64,000 nucleotides of DNA from Candidatus Latescibacterota bacterium (GCA_965226795.1 CBDDDZ010000004.1:288001-352000), one strand, 5' to 3'; positions 1 to 19,481 are shown, counted from the first letter of the stretch. Numbers and translations: made by a program. The notes: generated by a model from the letters alone, not told the origin.

Positions 1-1378
1 GGCGTTCCTCATGAAACTCGACCACGTCGGGGGGAATGGGCACTCCGGCCGGGTCCAGGAAACGCAGATAACCGTCCGCGTCTCGGGCGGGCAGTACGCG
101 GCTCTTCACAAACCGGTTGGGCGACCAGGGCACGTCCAGCAGGCCGGCTTCGAAGGCTCGCACGCTGCCGATTGCGACGTCGCCGTCTCCCATTTCCAAC
201 ACCCTGTCGACCACGGGACGAACTTCGCGCCGGACAAGGTCGATCTCCCGTTGAAACTCCGGCAGGCCGCTGATATCGATGTTGCGTGCGAGATAAACCG
301 CCATGCGGGCGGTTCGAAGTCCTTCGACATTGGCCTTCGGCGTGGGCAGCCCAAAGGCTTCGTGGGTGCTTTTGGTGGTCACGCTGACGGCGCCGCCAAT
401 TGCGGCCGCCATCCCGCCGTAGGCGATGAGTGCGGCACACTGCGCTTCATCCTGTGGCCAGGCGCCCATCCAGTGCAGGGAGATGACAGGTGTGAACACC
501 TCCGTGTACCCGCAACGAGCCAGATAATCCTGGCATAGTTGCGCGCATGCACGAATCGCGGCCGCGTCCTGGACCAGGTGCAGGGTCTGGCCAAGCTCCA
601 ACCCGTAGTTGCCAACACCCTGCGCCGCTGCAAGTAGAACATCGAGAACACAGATTGTGATGGCCAAAGAAGGCGGTATGTTGGTGCCGGTCAGGAACCC
701 GGGCTGGCGACGGTGCAGTTCGACGCCCCGTTCGAGATACAGCGCCGCAAGACGGTCCAGATACTGGTAGTTGCGGATCCCGTCTTCAATGGATAAATCC
801 TTCGTATATGACACATTATAGGCAATTCCCGACCCCAGATACCCGGTGTAGCCCGCCGCGAAGCCAATTTCGGACGTGAGCTTCGGCATTGCGGTTCCCG
901 ATAGTACAATAGCGGGTTTGTCTATGGCCTCGATCAGACGCCGACAGGAAGACACGCCGTAGTTGACAATGGGGAGTCCGTTCAGCATGGACCGGCCGGC
1001 CCGTTCCGATTCATCAATGCCCTTCTGCGCCAGTTCAAACTGCTCGTTGCGGGTATAACTGTCGGTCGTAGTGGGCACCACGTCGGCCAGCCCGTCGCGG
1101 TCGAGGCGCTGCATCAAATCAAGCTGCATGTCCAGGGTGCCGAACCCGCCCCGCGGTTGTGTCAGACACCGCCCGTGGGCCGCAGCCTGCCTCAGAACCC
1201 TGGCGAGTTGTTTGTGCCGCGGAAGGCTCCGGTGAAAGGCGACCGCATCGTCGAGGTCCACCTGCGAGCCGGTGGGCCAGCGGGCGAGGTTCTCCCGGCG
1301 CAGGTGGTGAAAGACGTCTTCCGGTATGGTTTTCTGGCTCAACGGAAGTTTGGTCGCGGCGTCTGTTGAGAGCGGCAT
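1..1378 (-). CDS. glmE: Glutamate/methylaspartate mutase epsilon (E) subunit, 3'-partial (runs off window start)
   Basis: Manual translation from ATG 1378: MPLSTDAATKLPL...RWPTGSQVDLDDAVAFH...QPRGGFG...TTDSYTRNEQF...SMLNGLPIVNYG, later HWMGAWPQDE...TKSTHEAFGLP...LDVPWSPN in the same frame; directly follows glmL. Absent from the ORF track because no stop lies in the window. Confidence 0.92.
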   Translation of the reverse strand, partial: MPLSTDAATKLPLSQKTIPEDVFHHLRRENLARWPTGSQVDLDDAVAFHRSLPRHKQLARVLRQAAAHGRCLTQPRGGFGTLDMQLDLMQRLDRDGLADVVPTTTDSYTRNEQFELAQKGIDESERAGRSMLNGLPIVNYGVSSCRRLIEAIDKPAIVLSGTAMPKLTSEIGFAAGYTGYLGSGIAYNVSYTKDLSIEDGIRNYQYLDRLAALYLERGVELHRRQPGFLTGTNIPPSLAITICVLDVLLAAAQGVGNYGLELGQTLHLVQDAAAIRACAQLCQDYLARCGYTEVFTPVISLHWMGAWPQDEAQCAALIAYGGMAAAIGGAVSVTTKSTHEAFGLPTPKANVEGLRTARMAVYLARNIDISGLPEFQREIDLVRREVRPVVDRVLEMGDGDVAIGSVRAFEAGLLDVPWSPNRFVKSRVLPARDADGYLRFLDPAGVPIPPDVVEFHEER

Positions 1379-1379
1379 G

Positions 1380-2792
1380 TTACACCTGCTGAGGTTCCCG
1401 TCCGGTGGGTCGGATTTGTGTGAGCGCGAGCGTAAGCGCGGCTTCAGGATCGGCCGCCGCCAGGAGCCCGCAGGCGTAAAGGACGTGATTCCGGTCCTGA
1501 AGCAACCGTGGCTTACAGGGTTTCAGCGAGAATGGATCGCCTGATTCCGCGAGAGCCATCTCCAGGATTTCATCCGGCTGTCCGGACGCGGCCAGCACCC
1601 CGCCCGTACCCACGACGGCGCTGACGTCTGTCAGGTCTTTGCCGCGCTGGACGACGACCGGTCCGCTAGCCGTATGGACGGTTTCGACCGTACCGGCATG
1701 CCGGCTCACGGCAATGCGTACCGCGGCACGGGCAAGGGCACGGTCGACCATCTGGTCCTCGATATCACCCGGCAACCGTGAGACGCACTTGTTAACGGCT
1801 CGGACGATTGATTCCACCCGGATGGCCGGCAGCCTGGCGTCGCAGGCGACGGCTTCCAGACCCGCGGCTTCCAGCACCGATAACGCACTGTAACGCATTC
1901 CCAGGTCGCCCTCGACCGTACGCTTGGCGTGGGGTTCAGGCAGGTGGTCCGCAGAAATGCTGCCGAGGGTGGACTCCCCCGAACAAATGGAATGGACATC
2001 GGTCGTCGCGCCGCCGACGTCGACCGCCACCAGTGTTCCCAGCCCCGGGCGCTGGCCGTCGCCGTCCGCGAGCAGCCGGGCGCCTTCCAGGACGGCGGCC
2101 GGCGTGGGCATCAGAACCAGATCGAACATTCCCTTGGCGCGATCGATTCCTTTTGCATGAACGATGCGCTTGATGAAGATCCGTCGGATTTCCTCGCGGG
2201 CGGGCTCGATATTCAGTACGCCGTACGACGGCATTACGTTTTCGGTTAACGCAACGGGCGTACCGGCGGCTGTAAACACGTCGTTTATGCCGGCGGCGGC
2301 GGACCGGTTTCCCGCGACTACCACCGGGCAGCGAATCGGAAGATTCGCCATTGTCCGCGCATTGGCGACGATGACCTCGCTGTTGCCGCCGTCAGTGCCG
2401 CCGGCCAGCAGGATGATGTCCGGCTCGAGGCGGGCGATTTTATCGGCATCCGCGCGGGTCAATTCATACGCGAACGCCTCGATCAATTTCGCGCCCGCCC
2501 CCAGTGCTGCCTGGCGCGCCGCCTCGGCGGTCAACTCGCGTACCAGGCCGACCGTCACCAGGCGGAGACCGCCGGCCGCGCTGCTGCAGGCCAACCTGTA
2601 GCGGAAACGCGGCGGTTTGCTCAGGCGCCGGTCCAGAACCTCGAGGGCCTCGGTGAATCCCTCTGTTACGTCGGTCTCGACCGTGGAGGGCGCCTGGTCG
2701 GATCCCAGGAGTCGGCCGTTGCTCAAATCGACGGCTCTCAACTTGGTATAGGTACTTCCGAAATCGATGAGCAGTGCCACCGCCTCGCTCAT
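1380..2792 (-). CDS. glmL: Glutamate mutase accessory/reactivating protein GlmL (MutL)
   Basis: IDFGSTYTK, CSSAAGGLR, LAGGTDGGN, VDVGGATTDVHS, KRTVEGDLGMR motifs; between S and E subunits. Confidence 0.93.
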   Translation of the reverse strand: MSEAVALLIDFGSTYTKLRAVDLSNGRLLGSDQAPSTVETDVTEGFTEALEVLDRRLSKPPRFRYRLACSSAAGGLRLVTVGLVRELTAEAARQAALGAGAKLIEAFAYELTRADADKIARLEPDIILLAGGTDGGNSEVIVANARTMANLPIRCPVVVAGNRSAAAGINDVFTAAGTPVALTENVMPSYGVLNIEPAREEIRRIFIKRIVHAKGIDRAKGMFDLVLMPTPAAVLEGARLLADGDGQRPGLGTLVAVDVGGATTDVHSICSGESTLGSISADHLPEPHAKRTVEGDLGMRYSALSVLEAAGLEAVACDARLPAIRVESIVRAVNKCVSRLPGDIEDQMVDRALARAAVRIAVSRHAGTVETVHTASGPVVVQRGKDLTDVSAVVGTGGVLAASGQPDEILEMALAESGDPFSLKPCKPRLLQDRNHVLYACGLLAAADPEAALTLALTQIRPTGREPQQV

Positions 2793-3238
2793 GGATGGTC
2801 CTTGAGATATCCGCCGGCGGGTGCCTCAAAGTCGCGTTCGAGCGCGGATATCACTTCATTCGTACGCGTTCCGGGAGGGAAAGCCCGGTCGAAGCCCATG
2901 TCCAGAAACCGGCTTTCCACGTCGCGCCAGTCCTGTTTGCCGACAACCAGGTTGCCGCCGACATAGATCAGAATCTCTCCGATACCAGCCTCGATACAGA
3001 TTTCGCGGAAACCGCGGCAGTCGAGTTCGCCCTGCCCGTACAACGAAGAAACCATGATGGCGTCGGCATCTGTTTCCACGGCCGCGTTGACGAACTCAAC
3101 CGGCGGCGTGAGCGCCCCAAGCGACACGACGTTGAATCCCGCCTTCTCCAGGGCCATGCTGAGAATACGGGTGCCCACGATGTGGCAATCCGATCCGATC
3201 ACGCCTGTAATCAATGTTCTCGACTCACTGGGCTGCAT
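2789..3238 (-). CDS. glmS: Methylaspartate/glutamate mutase sigma (S) subunit, cobalamin-binding
   Basis: DxHxxG B12-binding motif (SDCHIVG), SSLYGQG, YVGGNLVVGK; 149 aa. Confidence 0.93.
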   Translation of the reverse strand: MQPSESRTLITGVIGSDCHIVGTRILSMALEKAGFNVVSLGALTPPVEFVNAAVETDADAIMVSSLYGQGELDCRGFREICIEAGIGEILIYVGGNLVVGKQDWRDVESRFLDMGFDRAFPPGTRTNEVISALERDFEAPAGGYLKDHP

Positions 3239-4732: not shown

Positions 4733-4840
4733 CCGGAAACTTCGATCGAAAGCGCGCATTTCTTCCGGCGCGTCTGCTCGTCCCTTGAGAATGATTGTAA
4801 ACAATGGCCCTGTCGAGAGCATTTCCTCGGGTTCCACCAT
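4733..4840 (-). pseudogene. Remnant of the 5' end of a hlyD-like gene
   Basis: MVEPEEMLSTGPLFTIILKGRADAPEEMRAFDRSFR aligns with the HlyD N-terminus MAEPRLTKPSAAATPVILPGRDDGAEEMQAFVGSLR; 30/38 nt identity between 4829-4866 and 10457-10494. Confidence 0.6.
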
Positions 4841-5667
4841 CAGACAGGCGCACGGTCAGCCGGCGGTCCGACCGGCTCGCCCCCGCGTTTTGCCATCTGA
4901 TGGAACCATCGCAAACCGACCACGGCCAGGACAATACCGCACGCAAATAGCCACCATGGAAGGAATACCACGACATCCCAATCTTCCATGGGGCCGAATA
5001 TTTCCAGACGCGCGGTTGTCATTGCCAAAAAATTGTTCAGCGCGTGTCCAAATAGTGCGGGCAGCAAGGAGCCCGATTGAACGACCCACCAGGCAAATAC
5101 GAGCCCCAACATCAGTGCTGCGGGGAATTGCCATGGATTCATATGTACTACAGCGAACAGGACCGCCGACCAGAAAATGGCGCGACTCTGAGTGCAGTGG
5201 GCCAGCAAGCCACCGAGAATAACGCCTCTGAAGAAGATCTCCTCGGTAAGAGGCGCCTGAATCGCAAGGTTATAAAATGCGAAAGCATAAGGTGTTTCTC
5301 TCCCCATTAGGTCACGAAATATGTCAAGTGTTCCTTCTGGAACTGGAATCAGGTACTGAACAAAGTTTGCAAGGTTGAATAGAATGATGCCCAATCCGAC
5401 AATGGATACCGTAAAGGGCAGATACATTTGCCAGGGTACGGTCCTGAAGAGCAGGATATCGGACCATGGCCGACCGGATCGACGTTTAGCGTATAGCACA
5501 AACAGAGCAAACACGGGTAAATATGAAATCCATCCCAAATAAACAAAGATTCGCGTTGCCTGGCCTGATGCGACACCGAGGAAATGAAGCGCCAACCCCG
5601 ATGCGTTAATTGCCAATACAAGCAGAACCACCAGCCACACGGATTGCTTCAGATTCGGATACGTCAT
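4840..5667 (-). CDS. CPBP/Abi (CAAX-like) intramembrane metalloprotease, copy A
   Basis: EEIFFRG, FAVVH, GHALNN motifs; multi-TM; 275 aa. Confidence 0.92.
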   Translation of the reverse strand: MTYPNLKQSVWLVVLLVLAINASGLALHFLGVASGQATRIFVYLGWISYLPVFALFVLYAKRRSGRPWSDILLFRTVPWQMYLPFTVSIVGLGIILFNLANFVQYLIPVPEGTLDIFRDLMGRETPYAFAFYNLAIQAPLTEEIFFRGVILGGLLAHCTQSRAIFWSAVLFAVVHMNPWQFPAALMLGLVFAWWVVQSGSLLPALFGHALNNFLAMTTARLEIFGPMEDWDVVVFLPWWLFACGIVLAVVGLRWFHQMAKRGGEPVGPPADRAPV

Positions 5668-5820: not shown

Positions 5821-6648
5821 TTAGACACGCTCCCGGTCTGGCGGAGTGTTGACCTGTTCGCCTCTGTTTTTTGCGATCTGACTGAACCACCACAATCCGA
5901 TCAGAGCCAGGATAACGCCACATGCAAATAGCCACCATGGAAGGAATACCACGACATCCCAATCTTCCATAGGGCCGAATAATTCCAGACGCGCGGTTGT
6001 CACCGCCAGAAAATTGTTCAGCGCGTGTCCAAATAGTGCGGGCAGCAAGGAGCCCGATTGAACGACCCACCAGGCGAATACGAGCCCCAATATCAGGGCT
6101 CCGGGGAATTGCCATGGATTCATATGCACTACCGCGAACAGGAATGCCGACCAGAAAATGGCGCGACTCTGAGTGCAATGGGCCAAAAGACCACCCAGAA
6201 TAACGCCTCTGAAGAAGACCTCCTCGGTAAGAGGCGCCTGAATCGCAACGTTATAAAATGCGAAAGCATAAGGTGTTTCTCTCCCCATCAGATTACGAAA
6301 TATGTCGAGAATTCTTTCGGGAATTGGAATCAGGTACTGAATGAAGTTTGCAAGGTTGAAGATAATGATGGCCAATCCGACAATGGATACCGTAAGGGGC
6401 AGATACATTTTCCAGGGCACGGTCCTGAAAAGCAGGATATCGGACCATGGCCGACCGGATCGACGTTTAGCGTATAGCACAAGCAGAGCGAAAACGGGCA
6501 AGCATGAGATCCAAATTACATAATCAATGAGTCGCGGTGTTTGCCCTAGCGTGACATCCATAAAAGCCAACGCCGACCCCAATACGATATCGATAAACAC
6601 CATAATAACCACCAGCCAAATGGATTGCTTCAGATTCGGGTACGCCAT
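5821..6648 (-). CDS. CPBP/Abi intramembrane metalloprotease, copy B
   Basis: Start MAYPNLKQ after GGGAGGAAA RBS; EEVFFRG, FAVVH, GHALNN; 275 aa. Confidence 0.92.
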   Translation of the reverse strand: MAYPNLKQSIWLVVIMVFIDIVLGSALAFMDVTLGQTPRLIDYVIWISCLPVFALLVLYAKRRSGRPWSDILLFRTVPWKMYLPLTVSIVGLAIIIFNLANFIQYLIPIPERILDIFRNLMGRETPYAFAFYNVAIQAPLTEEVFFRGVILGGLLAHCTQSRAIFWSAFLFAVVHMNPWQFPGALILGLVFAWWVVQSGSLLPALFGHALNNFLAVTTARLELFGPMEDWDVVVFLPWWLFACGVILALIGLWWFSQIAKNRGEQVNTPPDRERV

Positions 6649-6801: not shown

Positions 6802-7629
6802 TTAGACAAGCTCCCGGTCTGCTAGCGTTTCGACCTGCTCGCCTCTGCTTTTTGCCATCTCATTGAACCACCACAATCCAATCAGGGCCAGAAGAATGCC
6901 ACATACATGCAGCCACCACGGAAGCAACATCACGGCATTGAAATCATCCACGGGTCCGAAAATTTCCAGATGCGCAACGGTAACTATCAGAAAATTGTTC
7001 AGCGCGTGTCCCACGATCGCGGGCAGCAGAGAGCCAGTTTGGACGACCCACCATGCGAATACGAGTCCCAATATCAAGGCCGTGGGAAATTGCCATGGGT
7101 TCATATGAAATATAGCGAACAGGCACGCCGACCAGACAATGGCCTGATTCCGCGTTCGGTGGGCCAACAAACCACCCAGTATAACGCTTCTGAAGAGGAC
7201 TTCCTTAATCAATGGCGCCTGAACCACCATGACATAAAATGTGAACGGGTAGGACTTCTCCTTCCCTGCCAGATCCCCGAATACGTTGAGCATTATTTCG
7301 GGCACCGGTATCAGGTGCCGCAACAGGTTTCCCAGGTCCGAGCCAACGATTGCCAGTCCAACAATGGACACGCCGAGCGGCATGTAGAATTGCCACGAAA
7401 CCCGCTCAAAAAGCAGGATCTCGCGCCAGGTCCGATCTGCTCTACGCTTTGCGTAGATTACCGTCAAAACGAAACCGGCTAATATCAAGAGCTGGATTTC
7501 GTGTGGACTGTGTTGTAAAGACCGGTCGAAGATGAGACCCAGGATAGCGATCGGCACCCCCAGTACCACGCTGATCAGGAAAAACAATATCAGGAGCCAC
7601 ACGGATTGCTTCAGATTCGGATACGCCAT
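6802..7629 (-). CDS. CPBP/Abi family protein, copy C (first catalytic Glu replaced by Lys)
   Basis: Start MAYPNLKQ after GGGAGGAAA RBS; KEVLFRS instead of EExxFRG; FAIFH, GHALNN; 275 aa. Confidence 0.9.
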   Translation of the reverse strand: MAYPNLKQSVWLLILFFLISVVLGVPIAILGLIFDRSLQHSPHEIQLLILAGFVLTVIYAKRRADRTWREILLFERVSWQFYMPLGVSIVGLAIVGSDLGNLLRHLIPVPEIMLNVFGDLAGKEKSYPFTFYVMVVQAPLIKEVLFRSVILGGLLAHRTRNQAIVWSACLFAIFHMNPWQFPTALILGLVFAWWVVQTGSLLPAIVGHALNNFLIVTVAHLEIFGPVDDFNAVMLLPWWLHVCGILLALIGLWWFNEMAKSRGEQVETLADRELV

Positions 7630-8255: not shown

Positions 8256-9071
8256 TCACATTCTCTGCTTCCCGGCCTCCCAGATCGGATAGCGTATGTC
8301 CGCCCGCTGCAATTCCCTTTGAAGCCACTGGCTGAATAATGTGTCGCGAATCTCGCTTCGAACGCGGTCGTCCAGCGTGGCCGGATAGGTTTGCTGCAGC
8401 ATGAATAGCGCGAACCCGCCCGACGCCTTTTCGGGTCCGAATATCTCCCCCGGCGAGGCGGCGAAAACCCGCGCCGCGATTCCCTTCGGCAACAGCTTGC
8501 GCCGCACGCGCCCCATAAACCCGCCTGCCGGGCGCGTCCGCTCATCTTGCGAAAATTCGCGGGCCATCGCGCAAAAATCCGCGCCGTCTTCCCGCGTCTG
8601 AAGCGCAATCTCCTCGATAATGCCTCTGTCCGGGTGGAAGATCCGGCAGACCTCCGCCTCGTCGAAATCCAGCGTGTTTTGCGCGAAATAGCGTTCGATT
8701 TCTCCTTCGGCTATTTTTTCACACAGCAGGCGCTCCAACAGCCTGGCTTCGGCTTCCGCCGCAACGTCTCCGAGAGTAATACCTCGCGATACGAGCCAGG
8801 CTTCCGTGTCTTCCACCCTTTCCAGGCGATGTCGATATCGCCAATCGTCCACGTCACGCTGAATGTCTTCGGACGTCGTGTGAACACCTTCCCGGACGGC
8901 AAGCTGCCGAACCAGTTCTCTGCGTGCGAATTCACCGAAAAAATCGAGTTTGTCGGCAGCGCCCAGCTGACGTACGACCTGTTTGAGTGACACGTCAATG
9001 CCATTCACCCGGACCAGCGTTATTTCAACGGCCGTGGTTTCGGTTTCGCCTTCCTCCGGATGCCGCATCAC
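8256..9071 (-). CDS. PpiC/parvulin-like peptidyl-prolyl isomerase-domain protein of a peptide export system
   Basis: ADFCAMAREFSQDERTRPAGGFMG, VFAASPGEIFGP rotamase-like motifs; coupled to hlyD. Confidence 0.82.
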   Translation of the reverse strand: MMRHPEEGETETTAVEITLVRVNGIDVSLKQVVRQLGAADKLDFFGEFARRELVRQLAVREGVHTTSEDIQRDVDDWRYRHRLERVEDTEAWLVSRGITLGDVAAEAEARLLERLLCEKIAEGEIERYFAQNTLDFDEAEVCRIFHPDRGIIEEIALQTREDGADFCAMAREFSQDERTRPAGGFMGRVRRKLLPKGIAARVFAASPGEIFGPEKASGGFALFMLQQTYPATLDDRVRSEIRDTLFSQWLQRELQRADIRYPIWEAGKQRM

Positions 9072-10468
9072 ATATCCCCCCGCTGTTCAACTGACGTTTC
9101 CACGGCGTCGTACGTTGCGGACTCGTAGAGCTTTCGCAAAGGACTGAGCAGCATCAGCAAGACCGATTGACGGTCGGTCATGATTTCCGCCGTTCCCCTC
9201 ATGCCGAAAAGCAGTGGCTTTTGCTGTCCCTTTACGGCCATGGTGGTTTCTTCCAATTCAACAACAGCCCTGAAGATCGGCCCGACACTCTCGTCGATGA
9301 CGGCATCGGGGGAGAGTTGTCTGAGCCACCCGCGTTTGATGCCAAAGTCCTGAAATGCAAACGCGTCGTATTTCAGTTTGACTATCTGTCCGGGTTTAAG
9401 CAGGCCCACGTCCCTGTTCAATACAGTGAGTTCGGCAACCATAGGAGCGGAGGTCGGCGCCACCGAAACCAACGCCTGACCCTTACTGATCACCTGTCCC
9501 AGGGTGTTCACCATTACCTGCGTTACCATGCCCGGCTCCGGCGCCAGAATCAGGTCCGATTCGGCTTCCAACTGTCGATCGACGCGTTTACGCGCCTGTT
9601 CCAATCTCAATCGCGCGGTTTCATACGCGTGTTTCATCTGCTGCGCCTCACGCCCGTGGGCGATGCGAGCCTCGAGAATCTGCCGCTGGAGATCCTGGAC
9701 AGCCGTTTCGTTCTTGTAGATTTCCGACATGCGTCCCGGAAGCGCCGCCAGGGCGCTGAGGTACCGAACGCGCGCGCGATTAATATCCACGCGGCTGATC
9801 AGCTTGCGCTCAAACAGCATTTTCTGCTGCAGGTAATCCTGTTTCAAGTGGTCGATCTCAGCCTGGCGAAAGCCGATTTGTGCCTGCAACTCAGCGTCCG
9901 AAGCGCTCCTTCCCGCGGCCGCGACGTCACCCACGTCCGCGTGGTAATCCTGCAAGGCGTTCTGATGGGCCACCATGAACCGCTCCAGAACAGACAGTCT
10001 TTTTTCCATTGACGCGATGGTTTTCCGGTTCAATTCCGTCCTCTGGGGCAATACCCGTTGAAGATCGTACTCGGCCTTTTGAAACGCCATTTCCGTCTGT
10101 TCCAGTTCTCGAAGGTCTCCCCAGGTTTCCCATGACTTCAGTTTAAACAGCAATTGGCCTTCTTCGATCCGATCGCCTTCGCTGACGCCGATATGCTCGA
10201 TTTCACCGCCTCGACGGGCCTGAAGTGTCTTCACCTTGCCCAGAGGCACTAATCGGAAGGGCGCCGATGCCACCACGTCCACCTTGCCCCGCCACGCCCA
10301 AGCCACCGCGATTCCTACAAAGAGCAGAACGAGATAAAGCAACGCTCGCCCCCAGAACGGCCTCAGAGACCCCACGAACGCCTGCATCTCTTCCGCACCG
10401 TCGTCCCGTCCCGGGAGAATGACTGGCGTCGCTGCTGCCGACGGCTTTGTTAGTCTGGGTTCCGCCAT
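9068..10468 (-). CDS. HlyD family periplasmic adaptor (type I secretion)
   Basis: N-terminal TM, coiled coil, ILAPEPGMV, VKLKYDAFAFQDFG, GMRGTAEIMTDRQS. Confidence 0.92.
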   Translation of the reverse strand: MAEPRLTKPSAAATPVILPGRDDGAEEMQAFVGSLRPFWGRALLYLVLLFVGIAVAWAWRGKVDVVASAPFRLVPLGKVKTLQARRGGEIEHIGVSEGDRIEEGQLLFKLKSWETWGDLRELEQTEMAFQKAEYDLQRVLPQRTELNRKTIASMEKRLSVLERFMVAHQNALQDYHADVGDVAAAGRSASDAELQAQIGFRQAEIDHLKQDYLQQKMLFERKLISRVDINRARVRYLSALAALPGRMSEIYKNETAVQDLQRQILEARIAHGREAQQMKHAYETARLRLEQARKRVDRQLEAESDLILAPEPGMVTQVMVNTLGQVISKGQALVSVAPTSAPMVAELTVLNRDVGLLKPGQIVKLKYDAFAFQDFGIKRGWLRQLSPDAVIDESVGPIFRAVVELEETTMAVKGQQKPLLFGMRGTAEIMTDRQSVLLMLLSPLRKLYESATYDAVETSVEQRGDM

Positions 10469-10495: not shown

Positions 10496-13400
10496 TCAGA
10501 CCACCTGCAACTGCTGGCTGCACATGTGATAGTAAAGTCCCTGGCCCACCATCAGCTCTTCGTGCGTGCCCATGTCGACGATATGGCCCTTTTCCAGTAC
10601 AACAATCGTGTCCGCATCCCTCACGGTGCTCAAACGATGGGCGATGACGAGAGCCGTACGATTCTCAAGGAATAGCGCCAGATTGGACTGAATCGCACCT
10701 TCCGAGTCCGTATCCAGCGCATTTGTCGCCTCGTCGAAAATCAGTATCTTCGGATCGCGATACAGCGCCCGAGCGATCGCGATCCGTTGCCGCTGCCCGC
10801 CGGACAATCCAATTCCCTGTTCGCCCACCTTCGTCTCGTATCCCAAAGGCATATCGCTTACGAAATCCTGGACGCAGGCCAGTCTGGCAACTTCCAGGAG
10901 CCTGTCCAAATCCGCGTCAGGTTCGCCGACCGCGATGTTCTCCGCAATGGTGCCGCTGAACAGAAACGAGTCCTGCATAACCATGCCCACCTGGCGGCGC
11001 AGCCAGTGAGGGTCGAAATCGCGCACATCCATCCCGTCCAGGAGCACACGCCCTTCCGAGGGATCGAACAGGCGGGGCACCAGCTTTACGAGCGTGGTCT
11101 TTCCCGCGCCGCTGCGGCCGACAATGGCGACCTTTCGGCCCGGTTCCAGTTCCAGCTCGATGTTGTTCAACACGTAGGGCTCGTCGGAACCGACGCCGTA
11201 CCTGAAAAACACACCGTCAAACACCAGGCGGCCCTCGACCCGCTTCAGTCTCAGGCCGTGTCCGCGTTGGCGCGCATCCTCCATCTTCGATTCGTAGACG
11301 TCATTCAGCCTGTCCAATGCGACCCGGGCTTCCTGGACCTCCGGCCACACGCCGATCAGTCCCATAATGGGTCCCATCACATTGCCGATGAGGGCGTTGA
11401 AAGCCATCAACTGCCCCACCGACAACTCCCCTTTGATAACCAGGGAGGCGCCATACCACAATATCACCGTGGAACTCAAGAGATTGATCATACTTCCGCC
11501 CGCGCCGAACAACATCTCCATTTTCAGCCGCCGAAACCCGATCTGAACTTCCCTCGTAAACTTGCCCTCCCACTGCCATCTCGTAACCCGCTCGACGGCT
11601 TCGGCTTTCACCACGTCAATGCCATGCAGCGAGTCGATCAGAACGGACGACTGTTCCGCGCGGGCAAGAAATGCGCGCTGGCTGAAGGACTTCAGAATCG
11701 GGGTATAGATCAGCGTCAAGCCCACGGACAGCGGCACGAATATCAACATCACGAGCGTCAATTCCCAGTTGTAGTAGAACATCAGCCCTAGATAGACGAA
11801 CAACATGATAAAGTCGAGTATCGCCGAGACGGTCGTGTCCGTAAAGAGACGCTGAATCGTGGCATTTTCCTTGAACCGCGTGGTCAGATCGCCGGTGCGG
11901 CGCAGCGCGAAAAACCGCATGGACAGGCCCAGCAGATGCCGGTAGAAGCGGGACAGCATGGTCAGACTCAACCGGGCGCTCATATACCCTATTAAATACG
12001 CGCGCAACGTCGAGGTACCCATTTGAAACAGTGCCACGACCACCATGCCCGCCAGCATCAGGTTCAGGAGACCCTTATCGTGATGAACCAGAACCTGGTC
12101 GACGATTGTCTGTGTGAAAATAGGCGAGGCAAGGCCGAATAAACTGAGCACGAGGGACGCCAGCAGCACCTCGATCAGAATTGCCGTATAGGGCTTGATC
12201 AATGGGAAGAATCGTTTGAAGGAAGACCTGGAGGGTTCATTCTCGGCCACCTGATCCGTGTACTCCAGCAGCAACGCCATGTTGGTCCAGCTTTTCTCGA
12301 ATTCCGGACGTTTCAACCTGCGAAGGCCCAAACCGGGATCCGCGATTTTCACATCCTTTTTGGTGATCTCATACAACACCACGAAATGGTTGCCCTCCCA
12401 GTGCAGAATCGCCGGCAGTCCGGTCCGGATCAGCGCTTCATAGCCCGTGCGCACGCCCCGCGTGACAAACCCCAGCGTCTCCGCCGCCTCGGCCAATGCC
12501 GCCATCGACGTGCCGTCCTTCGACACGTTGCACATATCGCGCAACCTGTTCAACCCCAACGGCAACTTGTAGTACTTGCAGATCATACCCAGACACGCAG
12601 CGCCGCAATCGGACTGGTCGTGCTGCTTCAGGAATGGAAAACGAAACGACGTGGGCGCGCCTTGTCCACCCCCATCCGTATCGCTATCCCCGGTACTGGA
12701 TGCCGGTCCATTCATCTCCGCGACGTTGTTCCCGTCCGTCCCTCCCGCCGGCACACGAAATCCCCCGGGTTTCGTCTCGGGAGACAGCGACCCGTCCGTT
12801 CCCTGATCCAGGTGTAATCGCCGGGCTATCTCCGGTAAGGACGCTAATTCAGGAATTGCATATATGAAGCTATCGAGTTCGTGTTTATCCAAATAATAGA
12901 TAACGCAATCTTGCTGGCTGCGGATCGTCCGTTGCTCGCCATCTGAGGAATCCGTATCCTCGAAAAAATCGCCCGTGACTAAATTCAGCGCACTGCCGTC
13001 CTCTGAGATCACTTCCAACCCGCCGCTGCCCACAAGGCAGAACCGCCCGCGCGAACGACCGGGTTCGGCTATCGTCGTTCCTTCCGCAACCTCTTCGCGC
13101 TTCAAACGCCCGAAGAGGTTGCGCATTGTCTTCCCGGACACAGACCCCTTCAGATAGCGGGTGAAGTTCCGGTATGCGATATTCTCAACCTGGTCCTGGA
13201 GATTTGCTTCCAGATCCGGTTCTTTCTTCAACACCTCGAAGAATTCATCCCGCGGCACCCGCATCACCCCGGAATCCTCAACCGCCCGCACGGTTGCCCG
13301 GTGACCGCGCCCCGTCAACAGCGCCCCTTCGCCAAAGTGATCTCCGGGATACAGATAGCCCAGCGTCTCCGAACGGCCGTCCGCAGCCTGTTTGATGACC

Positions 13401-13531
13401 CGCAACCGACCGGATTGAACGACGTAAAATGCGTCGCCAGTTCCGCCTTGATTAAAGATGACCGCCCCGAAGGGAAACCGGGCGGATTCTGACTGAATCT
13501 CATGTTGGGAAAACGGGGACGAGACGTCCAT
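10496..13531 (-). CDS. Peptidase-containing ABC exporter (cNMP-binding domains + C39 peptidase + TMD + NBD)
   Basis: GDHFGEGALL cNMP motif; QHDQSDCGAACL (catalytic Cys) and HWEGNHFVV (His); GRSGAGKT, LSGGQRQR, IFDEAT. Confidence 0.95.
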   Translation of the reverse strand: MDVSSPFSQHEIQSESARFPFGAVIFNQGGTGDAFYVVQSGRLRVIKQAADGRSETLGYLYPGDHFGEGALLTGRGHRATVRAVEDSGVMRVPRDEFFEVLKKEPDLEANLQDQVENIAYRNFTRYLKGSVSGKTMRNLFGRLKREEVAEGTTIAEPGRSRGRFCLVGSGGLEVISEDGSALNLVTGDFFEDTDSSDGEQRTIRSQQDCVIYYLDKHELDSFIYAIPELASLPEIARRLHLDQGTDGSLSPETKPGGFRVPAGGTDGNNVAEMNGPASSTGDSDTDGGGQGAPTSFRFPFLKQHDQSDCGAACLGMICKYYKLPLGLNRLRDMCNVSKDGTSMAALAEAAETLGFVTRGVRTGYEALIRTGLPAILHWEGNHFVVLYEITKKDVKIADPGLGLRRLKRPEFEKSWTNMALLLEYTDQVAENEPSRSSFKRFFPLIKPYTAILIEVLLASLVLSLFGLASPIFTQTIVDQVLVHHDKGLLNLMLAGMVVVALFQMGTSTLRAYLIGYMSARLSLTMLSRFYRHLLGLSMRFFALRRTGDLTTRFKENATIQRLFTDTTVSAILDFIMLFVYLGLMFYYNWELTLVMLIFVPLSVGLTLIYTPILKSFSQRAFLARAEQSSVLIDSLHGIDVVKAEAVERVTRWQWEGKFTREVQIGFRRLKMEMLFGAGGSMINLLSSTVILWYGASLVIKGELSVGQLMAFNALIGNVMGPIMGLIGVWPEVQEARVALDRLNDVYESKMEDARQRGHGLRLKRVEGRLVFDGVFFRYGVGSDEPYVLNNIELELEPGRKVAIVGRSGAGKTTLVKLVPRLFDPSEGRVLLDGMDVRDFDPHWLRRQVGMVMQDSFLFSGTIAENIAVGEPDADLDRLLEVARLACVQDFVSDMPLGYETKVGEQGIGLSGGQRQRIAIARALYRDPKILIFDEATNALDTDSEGAIQSNLALFLENRTALVIAHRLSTVRDADTIVVLEKGHIVDMGTHEELMVGQGLYYHMCSQQLQVV

Positions 13532-13832: not shown

Positions 13833-14648
13833 TTAGCCAGTGTCCGCGCATTTGTCCGCCGGCAATATGCGGAAGCCGAGTTCCGACGGGTGATCGTGAA
13901 CGTATCTGTCATTCTCAAATCGGCGGACCTTGAAAAACAGCAGCACATCTCCGGCACAACCGCAGAACGTGAGACTGAAGAGCAATAGCGACCAGATCGC
14001 CGGGTCCCACCACAGTATCAAACCGGCGGCCGGTGTGGTCACAATCAGGGGCAAGAGCGCGAATACCCGGTAAACACCCACCGTCATGGGTCTGTCGACG
14101 TGACAATACAAGGCCACCCATCGCCTGAAGATTCCGAAGTGCAGCGATTGAATCGGAATCTTACCCCAGCACAGGGCGGCGAGACCGTGGAGTGCTTCGT
14201 GGAAGACATAGAAGGCGATCAGGTATCCTGGAAACTTCAGTAAATCGTTGAACGTCAGACGTATATCGATTTCCCGTGACAAGGCATCTCCTGCCAGGAT
14301 ACCACTTGCAAACGCAGTCCAGAACATGAGCATGAAAATTATGCCCACATCTTCTATATTGAGACCCACATCTATAGGTTTCTGCGCGTTGTTGCGATCC
14401 TCTTCCCCTGTTCCTGACGTGAAGATATCGCGTATGATCGACAGGAATCTGTCGCCATACGCACAGAGCGTCTTTCGTGACATCAAAAAGTACATCGACA
14501 TGCCGGTCAGGACGCCAATTGCTATCGCGTAGTCGAGATCAAGCACGTACCTGAGGATGAGCATGGCCGGCGCCACGGATAGCATCCCAAACAATGCGGC
14601 AGCGACAATAAGCCGTTTCCACGTTCCACCGAGACAGGCGTACATCAA
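13833..14648 (-). CDS. Membrane zincin-like metallopeptidase (DUF3267-like)
   Basis: VFHEALHG (HExxH), LYCH, ALLPL, GCAGD, VHDHPSELG; several TM helices. Confidence 0.78.
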   Translation of the reverse strand: MMYACLGGTWKRLIVAAALFGMLSVAPAMLILRYVLDLDYAIAIGVLTGMSMYFLMSRKTLCAYGDRFLSIIRDIFTSGTGEEDRNNAQKPIDVGLNIEDVGIIFMLMFWTAFASGILAGDALSREIDIRLTFNDLLKFPGYLIAFYVFHEALHGLAALCWGKIPIQSLHFGIFRRWVALYCHVDRPMTVGVYRVFALLPLIVTTPAAGLILWWDPAIWSLLLFSLTFCGCAGDVLLFFKVRRFENDRYVHDHPSELGFRILPADKCADTG

Positions 14649-14747: not shown

Positions 14748-15602
14748 CTACCGGTCATCTTTATCAGCATCCGTAGTCACAGTTCCGTCCATGGTGTTGG
14801 CGTGTCCGCTCCTGGAAACGAGGTAGAACCACCACAATCCAAAGGCAGACACCAATGCCCCGGATACAATCCACCACCAGGGATTGAAAACCACAACATT
14901 CATGTCTTCTGAAACTGGGAAAAAAGGAACGTCAAAGTGTTGGATCGTCACTGCGATAAGGTTATGCAACGCATGTGCAAGAAGCGCGGGACAGAGAGAT
15001 CCCGTACGAATAACCCACCAGGCTAAGATGAAACCCCATATAACGGCGGGCGGAAGTTGCCAGGGATTAAGATGCCCCACACCAAACAATATCGCTGAGA
15101 ATACAACCGCGCGGGTCGGGGTGTAGTTATCCAGCAGACCACGTAAAATGACACTTCTATAAAGTAGCTCCTCGATCAACGGTGCTACGAAAACAACCAC
15201 GAACAGGGCGGATGAATAGGTTGTCTTTTGGCCGGCCGTCGATTGAAAGACATTTTGAAAAAAATCAGACATGGGAATTATGGATATGACGGCCTTGTCC
15301 AATTCATCAAGAACCACTCCCATGCCTGCCACCGATATTGCTACGCAGGGCCAAACGCGCCAATCAAAGTGTATGTTCATGAGTTGCGATATATCGTCCC
15401 ACGATCGATCAGTACGTCGAAAAATCCACATTAATAGAAGAAGGAATCCTACCAGTTGTAGCATACCAACCAGGAGGTTTTCCTCGTGCAAACGCTCGCC
15501 ATAGTTGAGCCGCACGATTGCGATGAGCACTCCCGCTCCAACTTGAATCAGAAGGAAGAAGATCAGCAAATAAACCGACTGTTTCAGATTGGGGAATATC
15601 AT
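14748..15602 (-). CDS. CPBP/Abi intramembrane metalloprotease, copy D
   Basis: MIFPNLKQ start; EELLYRS, FGVGHLNPWQ, AHALHN. Confidence 0.9.
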   Translation of the reverse strand: MIFPNLKQSVYLLIFFLLIQVGAGVLIAIVRLNYGERLHEENLLVGMLQLVGFLLLLMWIFRRTDRSWDDISQLMNIHFDWRVWPCVAISVAGMGVVLDELDKAVISIIPMSDFFQNVFQSTAGQKTTYSSALFVVVFVAPLIEELLYRSVILRGLLDNYTPTRAVVFSAILFGVGHLNPWQLPPAVIWGFILAWWVIRTGSLCPALLAHALHNLIAVTIQHFDVPFFPVSEDMNVVVFNPWWWIVSGALVSAFGLWWFYLVSRSGHANTMDGTVTTDADKDDR

Positions 15603-15847: not shown

Positions 15848-16690
15848 TCATTCAGCTTCTGGCGGCACGGATCCGGCCGCGGTATCGGGCTGGGTACTGT
15901 TCGTAACCTGATAAAACCACCATGATCCAAGAACAGCCGCTACAGCCCCGGTAAGTACCCACCACCACGGATTGAACGCTACAACATTCAAGTCTTCGGG
16001 AACCGCGAAGAATGGAATTTCAAAGTGGAAAAACGTTGTAAACAAAAGGTTGTTCAATGCATGTCCGACAACCGCCGGCAATAGTGATCCCGTCCGGATT
16101 ACCCACCAGGCCAATACGCCTCCGGCTATCAAGGCCGCGGGAAACTGCCATGGATTCAGATGACTCGCGCTAAACAAAATCGATGAACAGATAATCGCGT
16201 ACGTCCTGCTAGAATTCGCCAGCAGGCCACTCAAGACAATACCCCTGTAGAACAACTCTTCGACATACGGTGCGACGAAGGTTCCCCGAAACAGGGCAGA
16301 TGGAAAGGACGTTTCGCGCCCAACCGTCGATTGGAAGAAATCCTGGATAGTCTCCGGCATAGGAAATACCAATACTACGGCTTTGTTGAGTTCGTGAATG
16401 ACCACCACAATTCCGGCTATCGATATTGCAACGCAAGGCCATACGCGCCAGTCGAAGTGCGATTTCGCAGGTCGAAAAAAACTCACCCACCGTCGATCGG
16501 TCCGACGTGAAACGTAAGCGACAATAACAAGAAAAGCCGCGAATGCCGCCAGACCCGTTACATAGCTGTTATCTCCAAGGGATTCCCCGCTGATCGACTC
16601 TACAACGGAGATGAACAATCCAATGCCGACCTCCAGCAGCAAGAGCAGGGCCGTCAGCCAGATGGCCTGCCTCAAGTTCGGATACGCCAT
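15848..16690 (-). CDS. CPBP/Abi intramembrane metalloprotease, copy E
   Basis: MAYPNLRQ start; EELFYRG, FSASHLNPWQ, GHALNN. Confidence 0.9.
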   Translation of the reverse strand: MAYPNLRQAIWLTALLLLLEVGIGLFISVVESISGESLGDNSYVTGLAAFAAFLVIVAYVSRRTDRRWVSFFRPAKSHFDWRVWPCVAISIAGIVVVIHELNKAVVLVFPMPETIQDFFQSTVGRETSFPSALFRGTFVAPYVEELFYRGIVLSGLLANSSRTYAIICSSILFSASHLNPWQFPAALIAGGVLAWWVIRTGSLLPAVVGHALNNLLFTTFFHFEIPFFAVPEDLNVVAFNPWWWVLTGAVAAVLGSWWFYQVTNSTQPDTAAGSVPPEAE

Positions 16691-16842: not shown

Positions 16843-17118
16843 CTACCTCTTGCAACTGCAGCGGCAACAACTTGATGGCTTCTCCTTATCGTCGTTAGTA
16901 GCCTCAGCTGTCAAGTAACCGGCAACGAAACCTTGAACGACAGGGACGACATACTTGGCCACTAACTTCACACCTTCGCGGATGAGTATCCCCCAACCTC
17001 CCTGTGTTTCTACCATCTGACGGCTTCCCAACAGTTCTTCGCGCGGTTGCAAGGGGTCGCAAGTTACAAACATGCGACCGGTTTCTGTAGTCATTGGATC
17101 TGTCAACGCATGTATCAT
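16843..17118 (-). CDS. Double-glycine-leader peptide precursor P1 (41-aa leader, 50-aa core with Cys-rich tail)
   Basis: RBS CAGGAGG; MIHALTDPMTTETGRMFVTCDPLQPREELLGSRQMVETQGG|WGILIREGVKLVAKYVVPVVQGFVAGYLTAEATNDDKEKPSSCCRCSCKR. Confidence 0.8.
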   Translation of the reverse strand: MIHALTDPMTTETGRMFVTCDPLQPREELLGSRQMVETQGGWGILIREGVKLVAKYVVPVVQGFVAGYLTAEATNDDKEKPSSCCRCSCKR

Positions 17119-17320
17119 GATGTCCTCCTGACGGATTAATTGAATTCCTTGCAATTCAAGAAATGATGTGCATCTCCCTTCACTGTTACGGTGTTTGTCC
17201 TCCGCTGTCAAGGGTTTTGAGGATTGTCGTGATTTCGTAAAGCGTCTATGTGTCGAGAACTCGTTCTGCACCTGGAAGCATAGCCGTACAACAGTCTTCT
17301 TCCGTTCCGAACACCAACCA

Positions 17321-17527
17321 TCAACGTGGTCTGGCCATGCGTTCGATAACTTCAGCGACAAGCCGCAGGGCGAAATTCACGTAACGCCCGAGTCGGTCAT
17401 CACCTGGAGGAACGAACCCACCTGAAGCATGCGCCATTTCACACCGCGCCAAGTTGGTTTCACGGCCGGGGAGTCGAGTGCACGTCACGGAGACCTCGGT
17501 TGGCGTGGTCAGAAATCGATCCGTCAT
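17321..17527 (-). CDS. Double-glycine-leader peptide precursor P2 (37-aa leader, 31-aa core)
   Basis: RBS AAAGGAGGTG; MTDRFLTTPTEVSVTCTRLPGRETNLARCEMAHASGG|FVPPGDDRLGRYVNFALRLVAEVIERMARPR. Confidence 0.82.
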   Translation of the reverse strand: MTDRFLTTPTEVSVTCTRLPGRETNLARCEMAHASGGFVPPGDDRLGRYVNFALRLVAEVIERMARPR

Positions 17528-17670
17528 TAAATCACCTCCTTTCTTCAACATTACAGCGGTTCGTAAGGATGTCGCGTGGACTTTGCTACCAGATTAACGA
17601 AGCCCACCCCATTAACAGCGGTGTTCGCTAAGAGGAATTGGTTGGCGAAGGTTCTGGCCCCCGGTCAATC

Positions 17671-17865
17671 CTAGTCTTCAAAGTAATCGACTATGGCCTC
17701 TGCAATTCTCTCGGCAATAAACCAGATCATAGGGCTCCTCCCAAGGGGTAAGAAACCACCAGATGTATTCCTCATCTCACGACGCGCCAGGGCGATTTCC
17801 TGTCCGGGGAGCTGAGCGCAGGTCACGGTGGCCTGCCCGGGTGTTGATAGAATATGATCGGTCAT
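17671..17865 (-). CDS. Double-glycine-leader peptide precursor P3 (37-aa leader, 27-aa core)
   Basis: RBS AAAGGATG; MTDHILSTPGQATVTCAQLPGQEIALARREMRNTSGG|FLPLGRSPMIWFIAERIAEAIVDYFED; leader homologous to P2. Confidence 0.82.
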   Translation of the reverse strand: MTDHILSTPGQATVTCAQLPGQEIALARREMRNTSGGFLPLGRSPMIWFIAERIAEAIVDYFED

Positions 17866-17949
17866 TTCGTCACATCCTTTCTACTTTTGCTGTGGGATGT
17901 CCTTGCGAATGTCTCAGTCACCATAGCTCGATGAAATACTCCTCGACAA

Positions 17950-18153
17950 CTACAGTACAGGACCTGAAGTGTCCGCTTCCGGTGGATTCGTGCCTAAATC
18001 TATGCCGAACAGATCCCGCAGGATGTCCCGCCAGCGTATACCTCCACCGGAGATACGTGCGATCTGCCCGTGGGTCAAGTCCTCCGTCCGGATGGGAAGC
18101 CGAGCCGGAATTCCGGACGAGTCCACAGGGCTTGATACAGTTCGTCTGTTCAT
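17950..18153 (-). CDS. Double-glycine-leader peptide precursor P4 (37-aa leader, 30-aa core)
   Basis: RBS AAAGGAGGTG; MNRRTVSSPVDSSGIPARLPIRTEDLTHGQIARISGG|GIRWRDILRDLFGIDLGTNPPEADTSGPVL. Confidence 0.75.
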   Translation of the reverse strand: MNRRTVSSPVDSSGIPARLPIRTEDLTHGQIARISGGGIRWRDILRDLFGIDLGTNPPEADTSGPVL

Positions 18154-18759
18154 GTCTTTCACCTCCTTTCGTCGACATCCCCGCGATATCCAATCAATCT
18201 CCAATTCCTTCGATCGTGGAGCCGGATACGCATCGCTGAGATGCCATGATGTCCGAAGCGTTTTGTATGCCTTTTTTTCCATCGCGGCACACGCCCCGCC
18301 GGGGCGGCTTCGGCTGCGAATCAACCGTAATAACCTGTCACGCGACACTCGTTGCCGGTGACTCCGTCGACGCATAGGACTCGCAAGGATTGTGCCACTC
18401 CCGATACCCCGGGGCATAACTGTCTGGCTTGCATATGCGAATTAATTTTCGAACCGGGGGGAGGTCGTCGTACCACGGCCGGTACTTGAAATTAGTGTTC
18501 CGTTGTACATCACTCAGATGAAACATTGTTGTATTTTGCGCCGCGCCGAACGCACCGGGAAGCGTTGCAACAAAAAAACACCGGTGACAAAAGCCACCGA
18601 TGTTCGATCCAACAAGAAAGTTCAGATGGGTAATTTCAGCCCGCGTTCGACGGGCAATCACGCGAAGGGTATTGGGTCAACAAGGCTGCTTTATTCGCGA
18701 ATCAATCATCTTCCCCGCGCACAATGGCTTGTCGAGCCCTTGAGGAAGCATGTGTGAAG

Positions 18760-18784
18760 GTGGGGCAGACATTCCTGTCTGCCC
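18760..18784 (+). repeat. REP-like palindrome
   Basis: GTGG-GGCAGACA-ttcc-TGTCTGCC-C. Confidence 0.7.
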
Positions 18785-18787
18785 TTC

Positions 18788-18990
18788 TCATTGTCCTTTT
18801 GCCGGAATGCAGACAGAAGAAAGGCTTGCGCCGCCATTATAGAACCAATACTCGGGATGGCGCTTGAGCCTCAGCTTACGCGCTTCCTTGAAGGCGCGGC
18901 GTTTGTCCCGGGGGATCGCGTCAGCCAGGCGAAAGGTGATCCAATAGACAGCACCGTCCTTCTTCCAGTGGGGAAGACGGCGGCGAGTTT
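18788..18990 (-). pseudogene. N-terminal fragment of a REP-associated tyrosine transposase (RAYT, Y1/HUH-like)
   Basis: RRRLPHWKKDGAVYWITFRLADAIP resembles the RAYT N-terminus; truncated before the HUH motif; flanked by REPs. Confidence 0.65.
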
Positions 18991-19036
18991 TGGCGTGCCC
19001 GGACACAGCATTCTGAGATTTCGGTTTGCTGTATAT

Positions 19037-19061
19037 GAGCAGACAAGAATGTCTGCTCCAC
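19037..19061 (-). repeat. REP-like palindrome, inverted relative to 18760-18784
   Basis: Minus strand GTGGAGCAGACA-ttct-TGTCTGCTC. Confidence 0.7.
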
Positions 19062-19481
19062 CTTTTCAAGCTTTTGTTCGAAGTATCGCTTGAGCGCATC
19101 AACCGTCCGAGACAAAACACCCTGTACTTGCTTCCCCCTCCCGAAACAGCAAGGCGCCACTGTCTCATGTGTGCGTGCGGTGACGCAAAGGCAGACCGGT
19201 CGTCACCGTCAAATGCGAGCGGGAAACCGCTGGCATCCGCGAAGCGACGGCGCCTGGCTCTATCGTTCCGATAACGCCATCGAATGCCGCCGCTCGCTTA
19301 GACGTATTTCTTCGAAAGACGTCCCGTTACAGTTGCCGAGGTTCCGAGATATCGTTAAACTTGGTAACGTCGTCGTTGAACGTTCCGCGGAACGCCAATG
19401 GAATGAGGCTAACAAAGTGATAGGGCCCCGTAGCGTAAGCCGGGACCGTGTCCATCCCCCACCCGAAACCAACCGACATCG

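Follow-up and report, generated by a model that had tools for sequence, protein, structure and literature searches.

A candidate lineage-specific family of double-glycine leader peptides beside a C39-peptidase exporter in Candidatus Latescibacterota

Introduction

Four small genes on the minus strand of a 64,000-nucleotide stretch of Candidatus Latescibacterota DNA (the window, from whose first letter coordinates are counted unless a locus is named) encode peptides with leaders that end in Gly-Gly. They raise two questions: do their leaders form a family of their own, and what is the part of the leader upstream of the double-glycine box for? C39 peptidase domains read positions −12, −7, and −4 of the leader (PMC6363468). 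Because these positions make up the established C39 element, a conserved block at −24 to −13 needs another explanation.

Results

The first gene of the array, P4 (17950..18153), encodes 67 residues, with a type-A leader of 37 residues that lacks Cys and a 30-residue core. P3 (17671..17865; 64 residues) and P2 (17321..17527; 68 residues) both carry type-B leaders of 37 residues with Cys−22, followed by an acidic 27-residue core with an amphipathic-looking C-terminal stretch in P3 and by a 31-residue core in P2. P1 (16843..17118; 91 residues) has a type-C leader of 41 residues, also with Cys−22, and a 50-residue core that joins a hydrophobic N-terminal part to a Cys-rich C-terminal tail; the cores of P2–P4 contain no Cys. 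A strong ribosome-binding site of the AGGAGG/AAGGA type precedes the ATG of each gene. The original prediction for this locus had read leaders of 37 residues to Gly-Gly in P2–P4 and of 41 in P1, a common box at −12 to −1, and a VTCxxL(P/Q)xxE stretch just upstream in P1–P3. Each of these readings holds: the boxes have Leu at −12, Met or Ile at −7, T/A/T/I at −4, and Gly-Gly at the end, and the Cys of the upstream stretch falls at −22 in all three peptides. P4 retains Leu−19 and Pro−18. The P1 tail (16843–16880) could bind metal or form disulfides, and similar tails are seen in many type-C cores.

A leader HMM built from relatives alone, with the window's own genome and its two closest genomes excluded, ranked P1–P4 as the top four of 101,937 six-frame ORFs in the genome (55.7, 54.1, 49.3, and 41.5 bits; next-best ORF, 14.4 bits). 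Leave-one-out searches inside the window recovered P2 and P3 (48.5 and 42.5 bits) and missed P1 and P4, and the relatives are therefore needed to tie all four together. The cores are up to 87% (P4), 77% (P2), 74% (P3), and 42% (P1) identical to orthologues in other species; since they recur in this way, the genes are conserved and are not accidental ORFs. By these sequence measures, P1–P4 are genuine double-glycine precursor genes with a common leader. In three metatranscriptome runs, short contigs covered P1 (3 differences in 411 nt) and a P4 relative, and neighboring genes were covered at a similarly low depth, such that DNA carry-over is possible. Scans for promoters and terminators stayed at chance level, and a search for longer or fused precursor forms of 187–2000 residues returned none, which is weak evidence. 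The single-chain AlphaFold model of P2 is of low confidence (pLDDT 64, pTM 0.28), has helices only at residues 28–34 and 45–65, and is uninformative on the upstream part of the leader. Upstream of the array, the stretch at 18685–19100 has very high read depth and many joints and is probably either a repeat present in many copies or the remnant of a transposase.

The new leader family that had been proposed does exist, and no Pfam or NCBIfam model covers it; P1–P4 themselves gave no match to either collection, bacteriocin models included. A four-row leader profile found matches in 34 of 41 related genomes. Of the 168 genomes available for the phylum, 42 matched a 58-row profile, namely the window's own genome, 17/21 of its family, 23/31 of the sister family, and 1/115 elsewhere (borderline, E = 6.7e-4), so that all but one of the 42 carriers come from two families within a single order of Latescibacterota (41 of the 53 genomes in these families). 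When proteins were searched exhaustively with the four-row profile, 31 matches came back; on inspection, 28 belong to the family and three (P0003, P0017, and P0024) are repetitive false positives. A word-indexed protein search returned 66 matches. The fetched loci yielded 116 distinct precursors, from which two members scoring about 10 bits were excluded; the counts below refer to the other 114, the window's own four among them, all with scores of 30 bits or more. A sequence search of the PDB with the leader profile gave nothing significant, and a metagenome scan with the alignment of the neighboring PpiC-like protein gave four loci, all 56–72% identical. Some members of the family are filed under Gemmatimonadetes by NCBI; the named relatives, whose HlyD proteins are 82–96% identical, are Ca. 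Latescibacterota. Members of this phylum have been described from sponge holobionts (PMC9426513). We found no description of the leader family in the literature, which here means mainly the main texts of openly available papers; the precursors in Table S3 of PMC3140520 may be relevant to its novelty. On these searches, the leader family is new and almost entirely confined to one order, and its predicted export system belongs to a kind already known. The leader provides a secreted-peptide repertoire, so far unannotated, for an uncultured order in which some genomes have several clusters, and its profile opens more than 100 candidate bioactive peptides, most of whose genes lack a family annotation.

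Leaders of the family are 37–44 residues long. Across the 114 precursors, Gly−2 is present in all, Leu−19 in 113, Leu−12 in 105, Pro−18 in 97, and Cys−22 in 82. VTC, which had been put forward as the conserved motif, does not describe the family: its exact form occurs in 23/114 leaders and in 0/13 of a distant clade linked to M16 peptidases, all 13 of which have both Cys−22 and Leu−19. As read from the alignment, the family signature is Cys(−22)-x-x-Leu(−19). The predicted importance of the Cys stands in part. It is kept in two of the three subclasses (33/34 of type B, like P2 and P3, and 49/52 of type C, like P1) and throughout the M16-linked clade, with TGT and TGC codons both in use, but it is not a general requirement, as it is found in 0/28 leaders of type A, the P4 type. 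These Cys-less precursors share clusters with Cys-bearing types. Because Cys−22 is absent from the entire P4-type subclass, it is probably dispensable for export. Leu−19 looks essential and is the better candidate determinant, with Cys as a feature of subclasses. In Leu−19, which is nearly invariant outside the known C39 box, and the natural Cys-plus and Cys-minus subclasses, the family offers a clean mutational handle.

Among 53 nonredundant leaders, mean pairwise identity is 22.7% at −37 to −25, 32.8% at −24 to −13, and 37.7% at −12 to −1, and it drops to 9.2% over the first 12 core residues, such that conservation stops at Gly-Gly. The members were selected by a leader HMM, which favors its own conserved columns. 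Values of pN/pS are 0.41–0.50 for the upstream segment and 0.23–0.56 for the Gly-Gly box, uncorrected and from pairs at least 60% identical only, which lowers them. The proposal that the region upstream of the C39 box is conserved is thus borne out both by identity relative to the core start and by pN/pS. In the register set by Leu−12, 17/114 leaders have Gly-Leu at −2/−1 (for example, L055:1691-1972, L043:1823-2206, and L028:8717-9109), one has Gly-Gln, and one has Gly-Thr; among additional divergent members, the leader ends are Gly-Gln or Gly-Glu. Such endings would mean that C39 cleaves at an unusual site here or that the register is shifted.

On the minus strand, P4–P1 are followed by two CPBP/Abi genes and by genes for a DUF3267 protein, a peptidase-containing ABC transporter (PCAT), an HlyD protein, a PpiC-like protein, and three further CPBP proteins. 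The first CPBP/Abi (Rce1-like) intramembrane protease (15848..16690) is a candidate immunity or processing protein; the motifs of this protein and of the second (14748..15602) are intact. The DUF3267 membrane zincin-like peptidase (13833..14648) contains HEALH. With EExxxR, FxxxH, and HxxxN taken as the CPBP active-site motifs, four of the five CPBP paralogues retain them; in one of the distal three (6802..7629, 5821..6648, and 4840..5667), that at 6802..7629, KE replaces EE, and the protein is possibly inactive. The PCAT (10496..13531; 1011 residues) has two cNMP-binding stretches, a C39 peptidase, and membrane and ATPase domains. Its C39 domain (PF03412, residues 298–424) has intact Gln/Cys/His/Asp motifs. 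Of the 46 PCAT ORFs listed, 43 besides this one also have them intact, and two were not parsed. This PCAT is the sole C39 match in the genome, which also has six TolC-like ORFs elsewhere (12 OEP matches). The HlyD-family membrane fusion protein (9068..10468) and the PpiC-like protein (8256..9071; 271 residues) complete an exporter trio that adjoins the leader family at locus after locus in the relatives. At L098, L099, L129, and L130, precursor genes or arrays have no exporter match within the fetched 20-kb stretch, which suggests export in trans. At the far end of the window (1–3238) are ORFs resembling a glutamate-mutase-like set, presumably a B12-binding subunit, a GlmL-like protein, and a large subunit.

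The PpiC-like protein has a confidently predicted fold (pLDDT 88.6) of PrsA/SurA architecture. At the position in the last parvulin strand where SurA has a His, which we take to be part of the parvulin motif, all 41 aligned rows have Ala or Gly, the window copy having Ala. By eye, the protein has no hydrophobic signal peptide. We infer that it is cytoplasmic and isomerase-dead. Its Cys142 is present in 38/41 rows, and the adjoining Trp143 is present in 40/41, with the window copy alone having Arg143.

Discussion

We propose that P1–P4 are precursors with a lineage-specific double-glycine leader in common and that their cleavage after Gly-Gly is likely the work of the C39-peptidase ABC transporter next to them. 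Together with HlyD and a channel of the TolC type whose gene lies elsewhere, the transporter would likely secrete unmodified peptides of 27–50 residues. These would probably be membrane-active and serve in competition, and the CPBP and zincin proteases would likely provide self-protection. Of the parts of this model, export of P1–P4 by the window PCAT is very probable, and the absence of modification in this genome is almost equally so; an antimicrobial role is somewhat favored. The model as a whole, in which the upstream part of the leader also contacts the exporter trio, is our preferred account by a modest degree of belief.

Much of the system has counterparts elsewhere. All four peptides have Gly at −2, hydrophobic residues at −12 and −7, and small or hydrophobic residues at −4, as expected of double-glycine PCAT substrates, and the window PCAT, with its C39 motifs catalytically intact by sequence, is a fitting cognate transporter. 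The leaders share Leu−12, a hydrophobic −7, and the Gly-Gly box with class II bacteriocins and microcins (TIGR01847, TIGR03949, and PF10439), as well as the predicted PCAT export and nearby CPBP genes. Class II bacteriocins are typically cationic, and the cores of the window family are, in contrast, mostly acidic. Their leaders also average 23–24 residues (PMC2887384), and the segment at −37 to −13 has no counterpart in them. TIGR01847 matches only 2/58 leaders weakly (best E = 0.035). A match to the lactobin model had been named as grounds for doubting novelty, and the outcome is mixed: one of 11 relatives (P0035) scores 24.1 against the TIGR03949 (lactobin A/cerein 7B) cut-off of 21.5, but only over residues 30–60, the Gly-Gly box and core start, and none of the four window peptides passes.

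The extended, family-conserved leaders, Gly-Gly ends, and hypervariable cores are likewise reminiscent of NHLP, Nif11, and lichenicidin-type peptides; no cyclodehydratase or LanM, however, was found. The expectation that the leaders are neither NHLP nor Nif11 proved right, with no model match among 58 leaders at E values up to 10. The NHLP model (TIGR03793), which describes a nitrile hydratase alpha-like leader of about 83–87 residues, matches 0/58 leaders and 0/43 full precursors, and Nif11/N11P (TIGR03798; a leader of about 70 residues) gives no match in NCBIfam or Pfam. Length alone is not a mark of novelty as had been argued from an intermediate value: average leaders are 87 residues for NHLP, 69 for N11P, and 23 for TIGR01847 but 47 for the lichenicidin type (PMC2887384, Table 3), and leaders of about 39 residues occur in cyanobacterial precursors beside the same type of exporter. 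Lanthipeptide membership was rejected, as the P2–P4 cores lack Cys and PF05147 and PF04738 were not found, a soft result because the controls were silent too. The Atlas likeness to mersacidin clusters (0.85–0.86) is a lead only, all Atlas leads being below 0.9.

The closest parallel in organization is with the cyanobacterial bacteriocin clusters of groups I, II, and VI (Wang, Fewer, and Sivonen, 2011; PMC3140520), which combine a long-type CAP_ED (cNMP)-C39 ABC transporter, HlyD, SurA/rotamase, and arrays of small Gly-Gly precursors. The group I/II exporter set (CAP_ED-C39-ABC, HlyD, and SurA/rotamase) is present in the window cluster, and the M16 peptidases named in that work occur also in the Latescibacterota relatives. 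The window differs in having five CPBP genes and DUF3267, to which the relatives add a GT4/GT28 pair. Membership in the cyanobacterial clades was rejected because the host belongs to Latescibacterota and the best cyanobacterial match to the PpiC-like protein, from a plasmid collection, is 32.7% identical. In cyanobacterial plasmid clusters whose exporter is of this kind, the leaders have about 39 residues (Nostoc and Leptolyngbya) or 49 residues (Tolypothrix), and against the precursors of four cyanobacterial loci the leader HMM gave no score above 6.3 bits. One Leptolyngbya plasmid precursor (L118:11430-11675), adjoining the best outside match to the PpiC-like protein, has a 39-residue Gly-Gly leader with Leu-Pro exactly at −19/−18 and scores below 3 bits with the profile; this is one case and may be chance. 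Two further cyanobacterial plasmid clusters (L121 and L122) combine the exporter trio with another PpiC and with an aldo/keto reductase; in L122, genes annotated as HopA1-family and APH-kinase are present as well, which suggests a modified-peptide pathway.

What, then, is the upstream part of the leader for? The box at −12 to −1 would be the ordinary C39 recognition element, as established for other PCATs. The segment at −37 to −13, centered on Cys(−22)-x-x-Leu(−19)-Pro(−18), could make a second contact with the exporter trio, in which the PpiC-like protein, the cNMP domains, and an extended C39 groove are possible partners. The original prediction had named the PpiC-like protein or an enzyme encoded elsewhere. 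Within the trio, the co-encoded PrsA-like protein may be the most likely partner, acting as a holdase and handing precursors over to the transporter, an assignment that we make only tentatively and with some doubt. In distant systems, leaders unrelated to this family accompany the same exporter trio, and a PpiC-like partner therefore does not require this motif. A more specific version is unlikely, in our estimate: Cys(−22)-x-x-Leu(−19)-Pro would be a second address for a cytoplasmic, isomerase-dead PrsA-like protein dedicated to bringing substrates to nucleotide-gated peptide exporters, and the 37-residue leader would be a portable tag for secreting cargo of 25–170 residues, with this cargo glycosylated as well in most relatives. 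If it were true, the GT4/GT28-glycosylated cargo of the relatives would be an undescribed class of glyco-RiPPs and the window's genus its enzyme-less offshoot. The leader also makes the role of the PpiC/SurA-like gene and of the cNMP domains in long-type exporters testable.

Two other accounts place the partner in a modifying enzyme. In one, the leader extension is a relic, once the docking site of a glycosyltransferase (GT) pair of the relatives, and the window's genus has lost the enzymes and exports unmodified descendants. The relatives have a GT4/GT28-type gene (about 845 residues, or its 430-residue second half) and a second, GT4-like gene (467 residues) directly upstream of their precursors. 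The pair stands co-oriented before arrays at several paralogous loci per genome (L071–L091, L036–L040, L127, L128, and L133, in genera g6 and g2), and this association possibly represents an undescribed glyco-RiPP system. The larger gene is present in 16/16 genomes of g6 and 2/2 of g2 and in 0/14 of the window's genus. In a quick tree built from the PpiC-like proteins, the clade without GTs lies nested within those that have them, a position that suggests loss of the pair. Cys at core positions +1 to +3, moreover, is found in 24/63 precursors outside the genus and 0/51 within it. Against a relic, the extension is equally constrained in the GT-less genus. Cys−22 and Leu−19 also persist in all 13 M16-clade leaders, which are mostly at loci with no nearby GT (only L091 has a GT beside M16 genes), and the GT paralogues L123–L126 have no nearby precursor match. 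The kin in the tree are not independent, and L105 and L106 count as GT-less only because their stretches end before the upstream region. Constraint in the absence of GTs (pN/pS 0.42–0.50) and retention in the mostly GT-free M16 clade make a partner in the exporter trio more likely, and a relic is improbable. Known glycocins have a dedicated glycosyltransferase of family 2, from which the GT4/GT28-type enzymes of the relatives differ. Glycocin membership was itself rejected, as the window cluster has no GT and none of the 14 genomes of the genus has a close homologue of the relatives' GT.

In the other account, which we regard as very improbable, the leader Cys is the docking point of an enzyme, encoded elsewhere in the genome, that modifies the cores, for example the Cys-rich tail of P1. 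At least three Cys are present in 22/114 family cores, that of P1 included, and elsewhere the genome encodes two SPASM rSAM proteins and gives one PqqD-like match. Yet the predicted enzyme was not found in this genome, which is 95.9% complete: YcaO and MNIO gave no match with working controls, and neither did LanC (PF05147) or LanB (PF04738), for which absence is soft because the control genomes were silent as well. ORFs read by eye around the SPASM and PqqD-like genes gave no peptide-maturation context, no such modifying enzymes were seen among 53 neighbor proteins scanned from the relatives' loci, and the cores of P2–P4 have no Cys.

The export route that we favor leaves room for a different cargo function. 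The peptides could be matrix, adhesion, or signaling factors, with the proteases maturing them or turning them over and not conferring immunity. The model for such a role is EbfG1–4 of Synechococcus elongatus, four tandem, co-transcribed small genes with Gly-Gly motifs, whose products are secreted by the cysteine-peptidase transporter PteB, are cleaved after GG/GA as shown by mass spectrometry, and are needed for biofilm formation (PMC4997328). The likeness drawn here is one of gene arrangement and export route. PteB is the one tested cyanobacterial PCAT with Gly-Gly-motif cargo that we found, and the role shown for it is biofilm formation and not killing; the text consulted on that system names no CPBP immunity-type genes. 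HetC, a cNMP-PCAT, serves cell differentiation (PMC10986499). The cargo behind the leader spans 25–171 residues and includes short acidic peptides, Gly-zipper cores, Cys-rich tails, and long acidic proteins; many family cores are acidic, with median charges of −4 to −5 (P3 and P4, −3 and −2), and some relatives have acidic cargo of 100–170 residues. The hydrophobic moments of the four window cores do not differ significantly from those of shuffles (p = 0.06–0.15). Class II-like or Gly-zipper cores do appear in some relatives (TIGR03949, 5/43, weak, best E = 0.0074; PF10439, 3/43). On the other side, allelic hypervariability of the cores, five CPBP paralogues, and duplication of precursor/protease cassettes would fit a conflict system better, and we consider an EbfG-like role rather unlikely.

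Competition factors thus remain our preferred reading of the cargo. CAAX proteases have been suggested as bacteriocin self-immunity factors (PMC8692603). Precursor-plus-CPBP units are tandemly repeated at L086, and precursor-plus-M16 units are repeated at L095, L131, and L137; these arrangements suggest cognate peptide/protease pairs. In a distant exporter clade with the same leader family (L092–L097, L107, L131, L134, L135, and L137), the repeated cassettes combine acidic cargo of 109–171 residues with a pair of M16 peptidases and often an AraC response regulator.
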